Of a stretch of 64,000 nt of DNA, positions 10,975 to 18,030 are shown in pieces (within the stretch, counting starts at the first letter, position 1; every line of letters begins with the position of its first letter). This DNA comes from Alphaproteobacteria bacterium (GTDB lineage: Bacteria; Pseudomonadota; Alphaproteobacteria; UBA828). The position numbers were made by a program, and so were the translations under genes. The notes below the pieces were generated by a model. The model saw only the letters and a program-made list of their open reading frames with translations. It made no database searches and was not told where the DNA came from. The stretch covers positions 992,001-1,056,000 of the forward strand of contig OZ243972.1 of the NCBI GenBank assembly GCA_965214705.1. Direction: 5' to 3'.

Positions 10975-11643
10975 TTACCCGGCTTCCGGCCAGATCTGCA
11001 CGCCCGCGTGCTTGAAGCCCGTCGCCTTCGACATATTGAGGCGGATCAGCAGCGGTGTCAGCGCCTCAATGCAGCGCGCGCTCTCGGCCGGGCCGCAGTT
11101 GTAGGCGCGGGCACCGATGGTCTCGACCAAGTCCATCACCGCGCGCTTCGCCTCCAGGTCATCGCCGCAGACGAGGATGTCGCAGTTGATCGGCTGATCA
11201 AGTGCGGCAAGCACGTGGGCGGAGACGTTGTGGAGAGCGCCCACCACGGCGACGCCCTCGCCCAGCATCGCCTGCGCCGCCTCGGTCGCCGAGCCCTCGG
11301 GTGGCATCGCTGCCTTGCGGGGATTGCCGTCGGCGAGCGGCACGGCCATGTCAACCAGGATCTTGCCTTGCAACGCCTCGGTAAGCCCCGCGAGGGTCGC
11401 CTGGTGCGCGCTCCACGGTACCGCCAGCACGACCACGCGCTCGGCCCGCGCCACCGCGTCGGCGTTGGCGGCGCCTTCGATCGACCCCGGTGCATCAGGC
11501 ACGCCGGCTCTTAGATCGACGGCGATCTCCGCCGCGCGGGCGGCATCGCGCGAGCCGACCACGACGTCGATGCCGGCGAGTGCGCAGCGCTGCGCCAGCC
11601 CGCGGCCCTGAGGTCCGGTGCCTCCGATCACGGCGATTGCCAT
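10975..11643 (-). CDS. npdG: NADPH-dependent F420 reductase
   Basis: [53 protein letters not shown]. Confidence 0.9.
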
Positions 11644-11675
11644 GGAATGGGTCTCCTGAGTGCGCCCGGCCGCAG

Positions 11676-12200
11676 CTACGCGTCGTAGGCGACGAGGGAG
11701 GTGATCGGCAGGTCGAGGCGTTGACGCCCGCCGAGGAAGCTCAGCTCAATGATGAAGGCCGCCGCCACCACCTCGGCACCCACTTGGCGCAGCAGCGCAT
11801 GCGACGCGGCCGCCGTGCCCCCGGTTGCAAGCAGATCATCGACCAGGACAACCCGCTGACCCGGCGCGACGGCGTCGGCCTGCACCTCGACCTGATCGGT
11901 GCCGTACTCGAGCGCGTATTCATACGCCACGGTCTCGCCCGGCAGCTTGCCCTTCTTGCGTACCATGATGAAGCCACACCCGAGTGCGTGCGCCACCGGC
12001 GCCGCGACCAGAAAGCCGCGGGATTCGATCCCTGCGAGAAGATCGGGCTTGTGACTGCCGACCACATCGACGAGACGCTGCACCGTCTCGCCCCAGGCCC
12101 GCGCGTGGGCGAGCAGGGTCGAGATGTCATAAAAGAGGATGCCTGGCTTGGGAAAGTCAGGAATTTCGCGGATGTGGTCGCGCAGGTCGAACGCGGACAT
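11676..12200 (-). CDS. apt: Adenine phosphoribosyltransferase
   Basis: [43 protein letters not shown]. Confidence 0.95.
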
Positions 12201-12241
12201 GGCTGCCCCCAATCAGCGCAAGAGGGCTTTGTCCTCCGCGA

Positions 12242-12631
12242 TCACTCGGCGCCGGTGGCTTCCTTGAGATAGGCGATCAGGTTGTCGCGGTCCTTTTCCT
12301 TCCTGACCCCCTTGAACGCCATCTTGTTCTTCGGAATGTAACCCTTGGGATCGGCAATATAGGCTCTGATCGTCTCCTCGTCCCAGACGATTGCCGCGTC
12401 CTTCATCGCGTCCGAGTACTTCTTGAAGCCTTCGGCCGTGCCCGAGGTGCGGCCGAAGACGCCGTGGAGGTTCGGGCCCACCTTGTGCTTCCCGCCTTCC
12501 TTGACGGTGTGGCACACCTTGCACTTCTTGAAGACCTTCTTGCCCTTCTTCACATCAGCGGCAATGGCGGAGGCGCTTGCCGCCATCATGAAGGTGGCGA
12601 GGGCAACGGCGAGGACGTGTCGTGCGCGCAC
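12242..12631 (-). CDS. Class I cytochrome c (c2/c550-like), Lys-rich, with signal peptide
   Basis: GTG start after AAGGAG; Sec signal ending in AIA; CKVCH heme motif, KVGPNL.GVFGR, Met ligand in NKMAF. Confidence 0.93.
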
Positions 12632-12675
12632 GGGTATCTCCTTAGGTCTGGTCCCGATCATGCGGTGAACGCGCG

Positions 12676-12705
12676 AACATAGGCCGGGTTCGCACCCGCG
12701 ATCAA
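12676..12705 (-). promoter_or_regulatory. Putative sigma70 promoter for the cytochrome c gene
   Basis: Minus strand reads TTGATC-N18-TATGTT about 45 nt upstream of the start. Confidence 0.35.
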
Positions 12706-12764
12706 GGAGGCCATTCGGCCGGTGGCGCGCCGCTTCCGCGGAGCAGCGCGCCGCCGGCGGATGG

Positions 12765-14147
12765 CTACTGGACCCGGTACTCCTCGTCGAGGAAGAAGCG
12801 GCTGTCATAGTCCTCGACGCCAAGGTGGCACTCAGCGCAGAAGACGACGTTCTTGGCGCCCTTGCCGCCGGTCGTGCCGATCGTCCGGCCGCTCGGCATG
12901 ATCAGCGTGTAGCGCCAGTCGCCGGTATCGGCGTCGAAGCCGGCTTCCATCTTCTCCATCAGGAAGAGCGGCCCGGCGCCGATCTTGCCGTTGGGTTTGA
13001 CGGTGAAGCTGTCCTTGGCCAGAACGGTTCCGACGGGCGCTGGCCCCGCCTCTTCGAACTGGCTGTAATTGTCGGCGCCGATGTCGTTGGCGTAGTTGTT
13101 GACGTAGCGCGCGCCGTGGGTATCGGAGACGTAGGGTTGGGCCGCGACGTTCCGCCAATTCTGGTAGGACGCCGCCCACTGATTGCCCGACTTGGCGTAT
13201 CCCTCGGCCATGACCGCACTGATGCAGGCGTAGGCGTCTCGGGCCTCGTCTGCGGTCAACTCGACCTCTTCGCCGGCCGCGCAGGGGTTGCATGGATTGC
13301 AGGCGCCGCACGGGCCGCAAGGGTTCGCCGCACACGGGTTGCAGGGGTTGCACGGTCCACAGGGGTCGCAGGGATTGGCCGCTGCGCACGGATTGCAGGG
13401 GTTGCAAGGGCCGCATGGGTTGCACGGCTCGCACGGGCTGCAGGGACCACAGGGGCTGCAGGCTGCGGCGCAAGGGTTGCAAGGCCCACAAGGGTTGCAG
13501 GCTGCAGCACAGGGATTGCACGGATTACAGGGAGCGCACGGTCCGCAAGGGCTACAAGCACTCGCGCAGGGATTGCATGGACCGCAAGGAGCACATGGCC
13601 CGCAGGGGCTGCCAGCGGCAGCGAGGCGCGGAACCACGCAGTCCGAACTGACCGCAGCGCCCGCCGCGCACGGGTTGCAGGCGCCGCACGGCCCGCAGGC
13701 GCCCGCACAGGGATTGCAAGGGTTGCACGGTCCGCAAGGGCCGCAGGCGCCCGCACAGGGGTTACAGGGCCCACAGGGGTTGCATGCAGCTGCGCAGGGG
13801 TTGCACGGATCACATGGATTACACGGTCCGCAAGCACCACAAGCGGCGTCACAGGGGTTGCAAGGATTACACGGCCCACACGCAGACGCGCAGGGATTGC
13901 ACGGTTCGCACGGACTGCATGGTCCGCGAGGTCCGCATACCGCCGCGCACGGGTTGCACGGACTGCATGGTCCGCACGGGTTGCAGGAGGCGAAGAGCAG
14001 CACTCCCGGATCCTGATGCTGCGGGGTCGCCGCCGGGCTTTCGCCGGTGGATGTACCGGCCGTTGCGTGGCCGCCACTGGTGGCGACCGCGAGCCCGATG
14101 ACCACAGGGACCACCGTTCCGGCAAGCAAGGTGTTCGAGCGTGGCAT
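12765..14147 (-). CDS. Secreted cytochrome P460-family protein with a very large N-terminal Cys-rich (C-x-P)n region
   Basis: ATG at 14147 after GGGAGG; hydrophobic signal; two Cys blocks; C-terminal domain with [33 protein letters not shown] and a single C-terminal CAECH heme motif. Confidence 0.85.
13281..13985 (-). repeat. Coding low-complexity repeat C-[N/G/S/D/E/A]-P with AAA/AGA/ASA spacers, two blocks of 33 and 34 Cys
   Basis: Manual count from the translation; 9-nt periodicity (gggttgcac/gggttgcag) with synonymous variation. Confidence 0.92.
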
Positions 14148-14279
14148 GTCGGGCCTCCCTTGATGGCGTGATGGCGGCACTCTGAGCGAATTGTCGGCGA
14201 GCGCATGGTGCGGGGCAAACCCCTTCGACTCAAATTTTTGTGATTCCCGTGCCGGGTGAGCGGCAGCTAGGCTGCTGCA

Positions 14280-15155
14280 ATGGTTTTCTCCCGCGCACTT
14301 CTTGCGGTCTGTCTCGCGACCTGTGGCCTGGTCCTCGGGGGCGCTTCATATGCTGGTTCGGTGCCAGTTCCAGTCCTGGCGGAGGTCCCGGCCGGCCCCT
14401 TCATCGCGGGCTCCGACGCGGCCGAGCGGGAATACGCCTACCAGCTCGACGAGGCGGCCTACGGCCACTCCCGAACGCGGGAGCGCGGCTGGTACGATCG
14501 CGAGCGCCCGCGCGGAACCAAGTCACTGGACGGCTTCTTCATCATGCGCACGCTGATCACCAATGCCCAGTACGCGGCGTTCGTGGATGCCACGGGCCAC
14601 CGCGTGCCCGATGTCGATCCCGAGACCTGGCGCGGCTACAGGCTGATCCACCCTTACGAGCGCACCCGCCGCCACGCGTGGACGGAGGGAGTTCCGCCGC
14701 CTGGGCGCGAAAACCATCCCGTGGTCATGGTCTCGCACGACGACGCCAATGCCTACGCGGCCTGGCTCTCGGCCGAGACCGGGCGCGCCTGGCGTCTCCC
14801 CACCGAGCTGGAATGGGAGAAGGCCGCACGCGGCACGGACGGCCGCAACTTCCCCTGGGGCGATACGTTCGACCCAGCGCTGCTCAACAGCCACGATGCC
14901 GGTCCCTTCGACACGCTGCCGGTCGGGAGCTTTCCTGCCGGTGCAAGCCTTTACGGCCTCCTCGATGCGGCAGGCATGGTCTTCGAGTGGACCGCCTCGC
15001 CCGGCAATACGGGGCGCTTTCTGGTGAAGGGCGGATCGTGGGACGACAGCGGCTGCGGCATCTGCCGCCCTGCGGCACGGCACGGCCGGCCGGCGGACAT
15101 CAAGCACATCCTCGTCGGCTTCCGCCTCGTCGTCGATCCGGGCGCGGGGGGTTAG
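14280..15155 (+). CDS. FGE-sulfatase/SUMF1/EgtB/PvdO-family protein with signal peptide
   Basis: [72 protein letters not shown]. Confidence 0.88.
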
Positions 15156-15237
15156 CCTCCTCGGTCTGGCAAGAGCAAGCCCGCGACACTATCTTTTCCT
15201 GGCGGCACAGCCAGCGAACGGGCGACAGAGCGGCAGA

Positions 15238-15999
15238 ATGGCCCAGGCTTCAGCGGCGAAGAATGAGCGGCAGGAGGAGACCCGCCACCTCGACATGGCG
15301 ACACAGCCGGTGAAGCGGCTGCGCATGATGCTCGCCGCCGGCGAGGAGGTGCAGGAGGTCGAGCGGGTGCTCGGCAGAACCGGCGATAATGTGGTGAGCG
15401 AGCTGCTGCGCGGGCGCGGGACGTTCTACGAGTGGGACCATTACCCGAAAGGGGACGTCTTCGACGGTCAGAGCCACTCCCAGTATTTCTACCACGCCCA
15501 TCCCGGCGGCTTCCGGGATACCGAGCACGGGCATTTCCACACCTTCGTGCGCGCCAAGGGGATGCCGCGCGGCATGAAGCCCGTGCGCCGCAAGAAGCGC
15601 GACAAGTGGCCCATGGGTGACAAAGCGCTCACCCACGTCATCGCCATCTCGATGGGGTCGAAGGGTCAGCCTCTCAGGCTTTTCACCACCAACCGCTGGG
15701 TCACCGGCGAGACCTGGTATCGCGCGGATGACGTGGCAAAGGTGATCGGCCGCTTCGTCATCGACCACGCCCGCCCGTCATGGCCGACCAACCGCTGGGT
15801 CGGCGCCATGATCCGCCTCTTCTGGCCGCAGATCATCCTGCTGGTCAAGGCGCGTGATCAGGTGATCGAGAACTGGGCTGCCCAGAATCCGAAGCAGGAT
15901 ACCCTCGAAGATCGCCGCCTCGAGGTCGTCTCGCAGGCCGAGGTGGATATCGAGGCCCAGATCGCCGCAGTCAAGGCGGCCCTCGCCGCGAGAACCTGA
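15238..15999 (+). CDS. His-rich conserved hypothetical protein (resembles DUF6969 from memory)
   Basis: W.HYP..DV.D, YFYHAH, EHGHFHTF, THVIAISM, LFTTNRWVTGE; normal codon usage; no signal peptide. Confidence 0.7.
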   Translation: MAQASAAKNERQEETRHLDMATQPVKRLRMMLAAGEEVQEVERVLGRTGDNVVSELLRGRGTFYEWDHYPKGDVFDGQSHSQYFYHAHPGGFRDTEHGHFHTFVRAKGMPRGMKPVRRKKRDKWPMGDKALTHVIAISMGSKGQPLRLFTTNRWVTGETWYRADDVAKVIGRFVIDHARPSWPTNRWVGAMIRLFWPQIILLVKARDQVIENWAAQNPKQDTLEDRRLEVVSQAEVDIEAQIAAVKAALAART

Positions 16000-16037
16000 G
16001 GCGCAGTCGGCCCGCCGCTGTCACGGCTCCCGTACCG

Positions 16038-16071
16038 CAACAAAGAACGCCGCCTCTCCCGAGGCGGCGCC
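16038..16071 (-). terminator. Rho-independent terminator of the small Cys-rich gene
   Basis: Minus strand GGCGCCGCCTC-GGGA-GAGGCGGCGTT followed by CTTTGTT, about 30 nt after the stop. Confidence 0.75.
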
Positions 16072-16100
16072 CTTGGATACCGTTGTCGTTACTCTCAAAC

Positions 16101-16415
16101 TTACTCGGCAGCACACGGATCGCACGGGTTGCAAGCCGCGCACGGGTCGCACGGGTTGCAGGCCGCGCACGGGTCGCACGGATTGCAGGCATCCGCGACA
16201 ACGATGCGCTCGTCCAAGGAAGATTCGCACGGATTGCAACCGCCGCATGGGTTGCAAGCCTCGCACGGGTTACAGGCCCCGCACGGGTTGCACGGATCCT
16301 CGTGCGAGTCCGCAACGACGATCGGCTGCTCCCCAGCGGACACGGCCGACGGCGCAAGAGCGGCGCCGGCCGCCATGGTAACGATACTCACGGCGACCAC
16401 TGTTTCCTTGATCAT
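16101..16415 (-). CDS. Small secreted Cys-rich protein (17 Cys; two IVVAD-led CNPC cassettes)
   Basis: GAGGAGGAG RBS, ATG, Sec signal ending ..AVSA, own terminator; last cassette is CNPCDPCAA x3 (near-perfect 27-nt tandem repeat). Confidence 0.85.
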
Positions 16416-16585
16416 TTTCGTAGTCTCCTCCTCGCAGACGCGAATTTAGTTGGTTTGAATTGGGGCTTCGCGCCGCCTCGGCGGACTGTCGAACCATGCG
16501 AAGCCCATGTCATTGTGGTGTATATCGGCAGTGCGCAAAAGTGCTTTCGTTTCAATGACGCGAATTTGAACGCCGGAGACGACCG

Positions 16586-17371
16586 ATGCCGGTCGCGAGC
16601 AGCGAAGATTACGCGAGGCTGGCGGCCACCGCGCGGCGATTGGCGCTGGAGGCCGGGCGGACTATCATGGTCTTCTACCGCGAAGGCACGCTGGTCGAGA
16701 CCAAGGCCGATTCCACACCCGTGACCGAGGCGGACCGCGCCGCAGACGGTCTCATCGTCACAGGCTTGCAGGCCGCGACCCCCGACATCCCCGTGATTTC
16801 CGAGGAGAGCACAAGCACAGGCCCGCCACCCGCCGGCGGGCGCTTCTGGCTGGTCGATCCGCTCGACGGGACACGGGAGTTCATCGCACGCACCAACGAG
16901 TTCACGGTCAATATCGCCTTGATCGAGGATGGCCGACCGGTGCTCGGCGTACTCCACGCCCCGGTCCAGGGCGAGACCTATCTCGCCGACGGGCAGGGCG
17001 GCGCCGTGCGCATCGTTGGCGACGGGGCGCCGCAGCCGATAGGCGCGCGGCCGGTGCCCGGTGAGGGCCCGGCCGTGATCGCCAGCCGCTCTCACCGCGA
17101 TGCCGAGACCGATGCGTTCATCGCGGGTCTGGGGCCTGCGCGGATCGAGAGCGCAGGCAGCGCCCTCAAGTTCGGCCTGCTCGCGCGGGGCGCGGCCGAT
17201 GTGTACCCACGCTTCGGCCGCACCATGGAGTGGGACACCGCCGCCGGCCACACAATCCTCTCCGCCGCTGGCGGCCATGTCCGCGACCTGAACGGGCGCG
17301 AGTTGCGCTATGGCAAGGCGGGGTTCGTGAATCCGCCCTTCGTGGCCTGCGGCGTGGATGGGGCCCGATGA
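16586..17371 (+). CDS. cysQ: 3'(2'),5'-bisphosphate nucleotidase
   Basis: KAD.TPVTEAD, ISEE, WLVDPLDGTREF, EFTVNIAL, SRSH, GSALKF, TMEWDTAAG. Confidence 0.93.
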   Translation: MPVASSEDYARLAATARRLALEAGRTIMVFYREGTLVETKADSTPVTEADRAADGLIVTGLQAATPDIPVISEESTSTGPPPAGGRFWLVDPLDGTREFIARTNEFTVNIALIEDGRPVLGVLHAPVQGETYLADGQGGAVRIVGDGAPQPIGARPVPGEGPAVIASRSHRDAETDAFIAGLGPARIESAGSALKFGLLARGAADVYPRFGRTMEWDTAAGHTILSAAGGHVRDLNGRELRYGKAGFVNPPFVACGVDGAR

Positions 17372-18030
17372 CACCCCCCGACGCCCAGGCCGGCCCTCCG
17401 TGCCTCGCACCGACCCCCGATGTCATCGCGCAGGCCGCGCGGGTGATCAGAGACGGTGGGCTCGTCGGGCTGCCGACCGACACGGTCTACGGCCTCGCCG
17501 CCGATGCCGCCAGCGATGCGGCCGTGGCAGGCGTCTTTCGTGCCAAGGGCCGGCCGGTCGGCAAGCCGCTCATCGCCCTCATCGCCACGATGGCGATGGC
17601 CGAAGCATGTGGCGAATTCTCTACCCCGGCCCTGGCGCTCGCCGATGCCTTCTGGCCCGGCCCGCTGACCCTGGTGCTGCCGCGTGGCCCAGCCTCGCCC
17701 CTCTCGCCGCTGGTTCACCAGGGCGCGCCCGGCGTCTCTCTGCGCATTCCCGGCAACGAGACTGCGCGTGCCGTCGTTGAGGCCGCGGAGCGGCCGGTGA
17801 CGGCGCCGAGCGCCAATCCCTCGGGCGCGCCGAGCCCGCTCACCGCACAAGAGGTGGCGACCGGCCTCGGGGCAGCGGTCGCGCTGGTGATCGACGGCGG
17901 CAGGGCCGCCGATAGCCTCGGCTCGACGCTACTCGACCTCACCGGGGACATCCCGCGTCTGCTCCGCGCAGGCGTCGTGAGTGCCCCGGCAATCGAGAGC
18001 GTGATTGGCCCTATCGTTCGCGCGGACTGA
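17368..18030 (+). CDS. tsaC: L-threonylcarbamoyladenylate synthase (YrdC domain only)
   Basis: PTDTVYGL, AKGRP..KPLI, FWPGPLT, APSANPSG; ATGA overlap with cysQ. Confidence 0.88.
   Translation: MTPPDAQAGPPCLAPTPDVIAQAARVIRDGGLVGLPTDTVYGLAADAASDAAVAGVFRAKGRPVGKPLIALIATMAMAEACGEFSTPALALADAFWPGPLTLVLPRGPASPLSPLVHQGAPGVSLRIPGNETARAVVEAAERPVTAPSANPSGAPSPLTAQEVATGLGAAVALVIDGGRAADSLGSTLLDLTGDIPRLLRAGVVSAPAIESVIGPIVRAD

Follow-up and report, generated by a model that had tools for sequence, protein, structure and literature searches.

A conserved proteobacterial gene module of secreted cysteine arrays, a DUF6969 protein and a P460-like heme domain

Introduction

The bufferins and oxazolins are the described systems closest to the locus reported here. 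They are metallophores of the RiPP type (peptides made on ribosomes and modified after translation) and are matured by enzymes of the MNIO family (DUF692). An MNIO survey places the genes of the Cys precursors with Sec signals upstream of the enzyme gene (PMC12452194), and long proteins appear among the MNIO substrates (PMC12452194; PMC11626156). Here, we describe a five-gene module found in 64,000 nucleotides of an alphaproteobacterial genome of the UBA828 lineage (GCA_965214705.1, contig OZ243972.1, positions 992,001 to 1,056,000; this whole stretch is referred to as the window). The module encodes two Cys-array proteins, one of them fused to a P460-like heme domain, together with a DUF6969 protein, a relative of the formylglycine-generating enzyme (FGE) and a c-type cytochrome.

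The module resembles the bufferin and oxazolin systems in its Cys-rich precursors with Sec signals and in their periplasmic destination. In those systems the precursor gene is usually located just upstream of the gene of a cytoplasmic metalloenzyme. Taking DUF6969 for the enzyme, 19 of 28 close pairs show this order; at the locus itself the two genes are convergent. However, the companion is DUF6969, with a predicted fold that has no solved match; the putative precursors are long C-x-x-C arrays rather than DUF2282 or EGKCG units; and the module further comprises an FGE-like protein, a heme domain and a cytochrome c. The original prediction for this locus had seen no MNIO enzyme. This holds for the whole genome, which is 98.5% complete and has no match to PF05114, while the control genome of Caulobacter is positive. 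Since the defining enzyme is absent from the genome, the module is not a member of the bufferin/oxazolin family.

With metallothioneins and copper storage proteins the arrays share the high Cys content, the CxxC and CxC spacing, the small number of aromatic residues and the predicted disorder. Unlike these proteins, the arrays are exported to the periplasm and have DUF6969 as a companion; they are also much longer, more regularly built, and joined to heme or other redox-type domains.

Results

Gene content of the locus

Genes were called from the list of open reading frames (ORFs) and Pfam in the 11.6-17.4 kb part of the window, and signal peptides were called by eye. The five module genes are placed between apt and a CysQ-type gene, and every feature of the original prediction was found where it had been located. 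The module features are as follows (AF2, AlphaFold2; pLDDT, predicted local distance difference test).

12242..12661, minus strand: class I c-type cytochrome (c2/c550-like), 139 aa; ORF 12242-12823, likely ATG at 12661
12765-14147, minus strand (open frame to 14180): Cys-array/cytochrome P460 fusion, 460 aa from the ATG; Pfam, 33 aligned orthologues, AF2, Foldseek
13275..13988, minus strand: repeat region of the fusion, residues 54-291; composition, pLDDT, diverged DNA repeats
13623..13640, minus strand: CVVPRL motif of the fusion, residues 170-175, between the two repeat blocks; alignment and AF2
12768..13274, minus strand: heme domain of the fusion, predicted P460/c'-beta fold; Pfam, PDB sequence match, Foldseek
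14280..15155, plus strand: secreted FGE-sulfatase-family protein, 291 aa; Pfam PF03781
15054-15065, plus strand: CGIC of the FGE-like protein, residue 259; sequence
15238..15999, plus strand: DUF6969 protein, 253 aa (alternative ATG at 15295); Pfam PF22308
16101..16415, minus strand: small secreted Cys-array protein, 104 aa; ORF list, composition, homologues

The layout proposed earlier comprised CNPC-type repeats in a P460-fused gene and in a stand-alone gene, an FGE-family protein with a CxxC and a His-rich protein between them, and an adjacent c2-type cytochrome. ORFs, Pfam and Cys counts agree with it: the FGE-sulfatase domain is found at E 5e-45 with the CGIC, the His-rich protein belongs to DUF6969 (E 5e-84), and the cytochrome matches Cytochrom_C at E 2e-11.

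Conservation of the module across genomes

The module is real and conserved in Alpha- and some Gammaproteobacteria, and it is built around secreted C-x-x-C arrays. DUF6969, and not the FGE-like gene, is the constant genomic companion of the repeat genes within Proteobacteria. The module is a dedicated one, as had been proposed. In other genomes, too, the homologues of the FGE-like and His-rich genes are found together with C-x-P repeat ORFs or P460, so that the refuting condition set beforehand fails.

PF22308 is present in 91 of 401 genomes of the class, sampled evenly (the tally includes the own genome and the genome G240), and in none of 14 control genomes. The forward set consists of 80 of the 100 listed DUF6969 places, each taken with 6 kb of flank either way; they represent 75 genomes belonging to 48 families. 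The own locus, G240, contig-end fragments (G250 and G189), nine partial rows and seven of the lowest-scoring full-length places (G175, G138, G144, G159, G362, G386 and G301) were left out of it. Genes were detected with tblastn and a composition-based repeat detector; the homology queries were the window's own proteins, so that distant orthologues may be missed, and many loci are contigs of metagenome-assembled genomes (MAGs) cut at their ends. Within 6 kb of DUF6969, a Cys-repeat ORF is found in 42 of the 80 loci (32 families), an FGE-like gene in 24 (19 families), a P460-domain gene in 23 (20 families) and a cytochrome c in 33 (19 families), with none of these in 18 loci. The repeat is fused to P460 in 22 and stands alone in 25 of the Cys-repeat loci, some having both. 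With this detector, 0.91 Mb of DUF6969 loci gave 47 hits, whereas the own genome gave 6 in its 7.9 Mb, of which four are real.

Gene order is tight. In 22 of the 24 loci that have it, the FGE-like gene shares the strand of DUF6969 and lies at most 252 nt upstream. Stand-alone repeat ORFs not more than 600 nt from DUF6969 (n = 28) are upstream on the same strand in 19 cases, downstream and convergent in 6, and upstream and divergent in 3.

The reverse search was seeded with nothing but a repeat pattern, matched exactly as DNA encoding CNPCNPCA in one genome per species, and returned at least 125 stretches; 80 loci, 76 of them distinct, were taken from the matches listed. DUF6969 is not more than 7 kb away in 32 of the 76 loci, an FGE-like gene in 20, a P460 domain in 34 and any of the three in 49. 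The loci with at least two pattern matches (n = 50 among the matches listed) include 28 with DUF6969 and 38 with any of the three genes. The carriers among the matches listed are mostly marine Alphaproteobacteria (Rhodospirillales, Sneathiellales, Kiloniellales, Hyphomicrobiales, Pelagibius, Geminicoccaceae and Inquilinaceae), and the gammaproteobacterial ones are Granulosicoccaceae and Vreelandella utahensis. Module genes accompany the repeats in the cultured Aestuariispira insulae, Denitrobaculum tricleocarpae, Pelagibius sp. Alg239-R121, Hwanghaeella sp. and Vreelandella utahensis. When proteobacterial genomes with no DUF6969 near the repeat locus were tested, 10 of 10 held it elsewhere, at a class frequency of 91/401.

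Genome-wide profiles follow the same pairing. A P460-domain orthologue (E up to 1e-10) is present in 58 of the 401 genomes, 46 of them also DUF6969-positive, and an FGE-like orthologue (E up to 1e-40) in 33, of which 32 are DUF6969-positive and 28 P460-positive. Fisher tests on these profiles give very small p values, on which we put no weight because related genomes do not count as independent. Genes which were split pair again: the P460 fusion of G191 has the FGE-like gene next to it, away from DUF6969. The FGE-like gene is an accessory, present in about a third of the DUF6969 genomes and confined, but for 1 of 33, to array-bearing DUF6969-positive genomes; the c2-type cytochrome is a frequent accessory as well.

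The original prediction spoke of C-x-P repeats. In relatives the Pro is not universal: some arrays read CGACGAC, and such CGAC variants adjoin the FGE-like gene. The repeats are not bound to C-x-P, and outside Proteobacteria they occur on other redox-type domains without DUF6969. Arrays of the NPC type are fused to YceI domains in three Poribacteria loci (L175, L176 and L136) and to SoxA/TsdA-type cytochrome c in genomes of Granulosicoccaceae, Leptospirales and Nitrospinota (L118, L160 and L173). In an Acidimicrobiia-labelled MAG (L132), where PF22308 is present, the fusion is to a DM13 domain.

Other recurrent neighbours of DUF6969 are DUF2336 (PF10098; 14 of the 80 loci, for example L042:4214-5419, minus strand), which is probably a matter of synteny, histidine kinases and TRAP transporter genes. 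The 30 neighbour clusters that recur most often, of which seven were looked up in Pfam, showed no nitrogen-cycle or Sox family. At one locus (L108:6790-7185, minus strand), a secreted Cys array of another kind, CSGCSGSC... with GGSHAGD repeats, lies 67 nt from DUF6969, which hints that DUF6969 may pair with array types beyond NPC.

The cysteine-array proteins

The fusion begins with a hydrophobic N-terminal anchor or signal, which is followed by two Cys-repeat blocks and the C-terminal heme domain with CAECH. It has 71 Cys and 50 overlapping CxPC motifs. The repeat region alone holds 68 Cys in 238 residues (29% Cys) with 54 CxxC, and Lys, Asn, Pro, Ala and Gly stand between the Cys. In the AF2 model the repeats have a pLDDT below 50, that is, they are predicted to be disordered, except for residues 161-180. 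Dense Cys in CxC and CxxC spacing with no folded core, the pattern of metallothioneins, is therefore present in these 238 residues. The excepted stretch carries CVVPRL and is predicted with a pLDDT of 80-93 as a strand and a helix. C170, P173 and R174 are conserved in at least 90% of the 33 fusions, and C.[VI]P[RK][LI] occurs in 38 of the 52 non-identical P460-domain ORFs listed. The model suggests that the segment 161-180 docks on the heme domain.

The small protein has 17 Cys, 10 CxPC and a signal-like N-terminus (MIKETV...), with the motif IVVADSH occurring twice and GGAGG a few bases 5' of the ATG. It has no match in the Pfam or NCBIfam models. None of its 61 homologues is named; their signal region, MIKETV/MLKKT, is strongly conserved. 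In the small proteins the first Cys is preceded by a hydrophobic motif, IVVA(D)SH or IQIAAC, and the fusions show this motif too.

The DNA repeats at the locus are diverged (60-89% matches), so the repeat is maintained at the protein level. That the repeat ORFs are non-coding G+C-rich repeats was rejected in view of the protein conservation with diverged DNA, the signal peptides, the ribosome-binding site and the homologues in many genomes.

Only four repeat-bearing ORFs exist in the own genome (whole 7.9 Mb): the two at the locus and, on contigs C2 and C3, two paralogues of the small gene, both with the same signal peptide.

C2:30011-30466, minus strand (locus L032): paralogue of the small CNPC gene
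C3:2316671-2316886, minus strand (locus L033): paralogue of the small CNPC gene, shortened copy

Both paralogues sit among ORFs for integrase, group II intron reverse transcriptase, RadC-like proteins and large methylases or helicases, and these surroundings suggest spread on mobile elements. An Arg-rich protein family with repeated CxxCG...CxPC zinc-ribbon-like units was also noticed, two members of which directly adjoin the mobile small-gene copies.

C1:296896-297780, 1924416-1925789, 342749-344479 and 3074239-3075831, strand not given: Arg-rich zinc-ribbon-like family in the own genome
L032:6559-7410, minus strand, and L033:7325-8134, minus strand: the members at the paralogue loci

The P460-like heme domain

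Pfam Cytochrome_P460 (PF16694) matches residues 338-460 of the fusion at E 3e-8 (34.5 bits against a cut-off of 27). Among PDB sequences the domain matches 7s5o (E 7e-5), and Foldseek aligns its model to cytochromes c'-beta and P460 (7s5o, 7ead and 6hiu) at E 6e-5 to 1e-4, with template modelling (TM) scores of 0.54-0.68 normalised to the target. Eight residues, C308, H344, R347, N351, K378, C437, C440 and H441, are invariant in the 33 aligned fusions, the last three forming the c-type heme site CxxCH near the C-terminus, which is present as CAECH.

In a single pairwise phmmer alignment K378 is aligned to a Met of NeCP-beta, the cytochrome c'-beta of N. europaea (7s5o). According to section 8 of the review PMC11928373, this Met takes the place of the cross-linking Lys. 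The fusion family therefore looks P460-type: by Pfam and Foldseek the heme domain has the P460 fold, and by the alignment it keeps a Lys at the heme cross-link position.

The fusion belongs by its predicted fold to the P460/c'-beta superfamily, with which it shares the C-terminal CxxCH and the Lys at the cross-link position. Known P460s oxidise hydroxylamine, according to the same review (PMC11928373); for the fusion this reaction, like a covalent bond of the Lys to the heme, is putative. The fusion differs from the solved members, to which it is only 17-24% identical, in an N-terminal extension of about 290 residues that comprises the anchor, both Cys arrays and the predicted docking strand, in the extra invariant Cys308 and in its occurrence in non-nitrifying marine heterotroph lineages. 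The words 'fusion', 'cysteine-rich' and 'N-terminal' are absent from the accessible part of the review (PMC11928373).

The P460-like proteins (the fusions as well as L043:4620-5735, minus strand, and L064:4595-5728, minus strand) also have an unusually conserved N-terminal segment, K/R-x-x-L-L-S-S-T-V-I-P followed by a Gly-rich hydrophobic stretch. The same segment is found in Cys-free paralogues. Instead of a generic signal peptide, it could be an anchor in the membrane or a signal for sorting.

The DUF6969 protein

The protein described earlier as a His-rich unknown matches PF22308 with 281 bits against a cut-off of 27. In an alignment of 38 sequences H68, H86, H88, H99, H101 and H133 are invariant, and a TNRWV motif is present. 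At E up to 0.001 the family comprises 1284 representative clusters. AF2 models the protein with high confidence (pLDDT 92.4; predicted TM score 0.90). No PDB sequence matches the protein at E up to 10, and fold searches with the model gave a best E of 0.59 in Foldseek and a best Z of 3.6 in the wide VIA-align search, by which a new fold is not proven. The ESM Atlas features gave no usable match.

In the fused forms P0089 and P0152 the DUF6969 domain is followed by a long coiled coil, one transmembrane helix and, at the C-terminus, a bacterial SH3 domain; one fusion to PAP2 is a single sequence. The fused forms bear on topology only. DUF6969 is probably cytoplasmic, since it has no signal peptide and has fused forms with the coiled coil, the transmembrane helix and SH3. 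Complex prediction of DUF6969 with the small protein gave scores of 0.02, 0.70 and 0.01, scattered between the runs and weighing on neither side as to binding.

The FGE-like protein

PF03781 (FGE-sulfatase) covers residues 61-284 of the protein at E 5.4e-45, following a hydrophobic N-terminal segment. Orthologues keep GGSWDD(K/S)GCG(V/I)CRPAARH and the hydrophobic N-termini, and the CGxC is present in all full orthologues read but one (CGVY). The best PDB match is ToxD (7spq, E 5.8e-34), CalU17 is also close, and true FGEs score lower.

In true FGEs the Cys are spaced C-x4-C. The loop between GGSW and AAR, where the conserved CG(V/I)C lies here, would be the seat of their copper-binding Cys pair. 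When C-terminal fragments of the FGE-like protein were compared with true FGE, only pFGE and PorK aligned, with nothing relevant afterwards. The substrate motif CxPxR is not found in the array proteins, which carry CxPC, CGAC and CxxPR(L), and no sulfatase-like cluster is among the 30 most recurrent clusters of neighbour ORFs, seven of them checked in Pfam. The protein is a member of the FGE-sulfatase superfamily (FGE, pFGE, PvdO, ToxD, CalU17 and the C-domain of EgtB) by its domain, and a shared reaction is putative. From FGE itself it differs in that it is secreted, has CGxC spacing, lacks a sulfatase neighbour and the CxPxR motif, and finds its best solved match in ToxD.

FGE-like proteins are listed as T6SS (type VI secretion) immunity proteins in a preprint (10.1101/2021.05.21.445229). 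We rejected this role for the protein described here because no T6SS or effector-like family recurs among the 30 neighbour clusters.

The cytochrome c, flanks and transcription

The cytochrome c matches PF00034 (Cytochrom_C) at E 1.8e-11 and has a signal-like N-terminal segment and the heme site CKVCH. It also matches the NCBIfam CycA c-550 domain at E 3.6e-34, under the cut-off of the model. The module is flanked by apt and cysQ, in line with the original prediction, and an inverted repeat lies within it.

11676-12212, minus strand: apt, flank; ORF list and Pfam
16048..16069, no strand: G+C-rich inverted repeat of 9 bp with a 4-nt loop; read from the sequence
16586-17371, plus strand: inositol-monophosphatase/CysQ-type phosphatase gene, flank; ORF list and Pfam

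The inverted repeat lies between the convergent genes of DUF6969 and the small protein and is a possible two-way terminator. The terminator scan did not list it because it has no T run. In 11500-17500 the scan for promoters and terminators found one promoter-like site, within cysQ, and four terminator-like sites, which is the level of the shuffled control. Antisense ORFs at 12825-14171 and 13288-14016 (plus strand; for example with HGLQGPQG repeats) are by-products of the G+C-rich repeat and were not retained as genes.

The stretch is contained wholly or partly in 20 of the 21 public runs listed, two of which are RNA libraries. In one of these (X19), contigs of relatives span all 30 bins of 11600-17400 at 90-99% identity. 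The other (X20) has a 334-nt contig of a relative over the small ORF (16105-16447) with a 9-nt deletion, and its uncovered parts carry no meaning. The RNA-library cover is a hint of expression only, as the contigs are those of relatives and DNA carry-over is possible.

Discussion

We tentatively suggest, at less than even confidence, that the module makes a periplasmic array of thiols or thiol-derived groups for soft metals or redox-active ligands, which is matured by DUF6969 and wired to heme. The roles that had been proposed for the arrays at the outset, namely metal loading, enzymatic modification or a thiol, NO or sulfane buffer, are likewise putative. We propose the following scheme.

Step 1: As a metalloenzyme, DUF6969 would have the precursors as its substrates and act before their export. 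Its logic would be that of MNIO and the bufferins, with an unrelated fold.

Step 2: The arrays would be exported by Sec. In the periplasm the dense array of thiols or thiol-derived groups would capture a thiophilic ligand, most likely soft metal ions, e.g., Cu(I). The FGE-like protein may oxidise or load the cysteines in this compartment.

Step 3: The P460-like heme and the neighbouring cytochrome c would serve as the redox outlet of the array.

A bolder proposal, which we regard as doubtful, is that DUF6969 is a new class of cytoplasmic His-ligated metalloenzymes modifying the Cys arrays of Sec-destined precursors. Peptide and protein metallophores or redox arrays of the periplasm could then be made by a route independent of MNIO. 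A relative of FGE, secreted and of the copper type, would add a second, periplasmic oxidation of cysteines, and one of the products would be a P460 heme protein with its own modified thiol arrays.

Several observations weigh against the array being matured by DUF6969 and wired to heme. Free thiols in the oxidising periplasm tend toward disulfides. The small gene of the window is convergent with DUF6969 and not upstream of it. Among nine DUF6969-positive genomes without a local module, the NPC-x-NPC-x-NPC scan found arrays elsewhere in two and none in seven; this pattern is not fully sensitive, since it missed the two extra copies of the own genome. PF22308 was not found in the NPC-array genomes of two Poribacteria, one Leptospirales and one Nitrospinota. 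DUF6969 is thus neither sufficient nor universally needed for arrays, because each occurs without the other. A CxP-directed reaction of the FGE-like protein cannot be general, given the Pro-less CGAC arrays that adjoin its gene. Finally, no metal-resistance gene or metal regulator is among the 30 most recurrent neighbour clusters.

The arrays might instead be an unmodified, metallothionein-like sponge of the periplasm, binding metal by plain thiolates. DUF6969 and the FGE-like protein would then be merely co-regulated members of a stress response, e.g., a cytoplasmic metal handler and a periplasmic copper protein, and would not act on the arrays. The Cys-rich composition with Lys, Asn, Pro, Ala and Gly between the Cys and the predicted disorder fit such a sponge, as do the arrays without DUF6969 in other phyla and the seven of nine genomes with DUF6969 and no detected array. 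However, a more direct link is suggested by the tight gene order, with 19 of 28 pairs having the repeat gene right upstream of DUF6969, and by the genome-wide co-occurrence in 10 of 10 cases. Those 30 neighbour clusters, moreover, showed no known metal regulator or efflux gene; we rate the sponge as fairly unlikely. It is unlikely, too, that the module handles reactive nitrogen or sulfur, with a Lys-type P460 heme that oxidises hydroxylamine, binds nitric oxide (NO) or handles sulfur species, arrays that accept NO+ or sulfane sulfur, and electrons that exit via the c2-type cytochrome. The P460 fold with its Lys, the hydroxylamine chemistry of known P460s, the adjacent cytochrome c, the three genomes with repeats on SoxA/TsdA-type cytochrome c and the CysQ gene flanking the module in the window's family all point that way. 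Nevertheless, arrays stand alone in 25 of the 80 loci, many of them with no P460 within 6 kb, others are fused to YceI and DM13 domains, and no nitrification, denitrification or Sox genes recur in the 30 clusters.

Classical FGE chemistry, in which the secreted enzyme turns the Cys of the C-x-P repeats or of CVVPRL into formylglycine and yields aldehyde-bearing proteins, seems to us quite improbable. The FGE-sulfatase domain, its conserved Cys pair in the GGSW-AAR loop, where the copper-binding pair of true FGEs would lie, the C-x-P-rich putative substrates and the divergent orientation of the enzyme and fusion genes are in agreement with it, but the motif is CxPC or CxxPR and not CxPxR, and the enzyme also occurs at loci with Pro-less CGAC arrays. 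Moreover, CVVPRL is kept where an FGE orthologue was not found (e.g., in the genomes of L069, L072, L090 and L097), the nearest solved relatives are ToxD and CalU17 and not FGE, and the enzyme is present in only 33 of 401 genomes compared with 58 for P460. Inherited synteny alone, with no shared function, is very improbable and is disfavoured. The order apt, cytochrome c, DUF6969, cysQ is kept in the window's own family (L059 and L063), so that some of the adjacency is plain synteny; across 32 families and the Gammaproteobacteria, however, there are several different arrangements, split pairs associate again (the FGE-like gene next to P460 and away from DUF6969 in G191), and the reverse search was seeded independently of DUF6969.

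As to the novelty of the module, the literature search found nothing naming DUF6969, a 16-letter repeat string and CGPCNPC, or a Cys-rich P460, most subscription journals being outside the search. Literature on FGE with RiPPs, on the gene neighbourhood of P460 and on NirV with formylglycine contained no description of the module. The original prediction that no characterised system has such a composition therefore stands within this search, and we provisionally regard the module as new in kind, on the grounds of its composition and of the literature searched.

If the coupling of DUF6969, the arrays and heme is true, it would give a first function to the widespread DUF6969 family, whose predicted fold has no solved relative, and it would define a new family of secreted cysteine-array proteins. 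The P460 heme fold would gain a role outside nitrifiers and methanotrophs, and the FGE family a new class of substrates. Its small size makes the module amenable to direct co-expression. Such a coupling would also matter for the way in which soft metals or reactive nitrogen and sulfur species are dealt with by marine and sponge-associated bacteria in the periplasm, a place where free thiols are not expected to persist.

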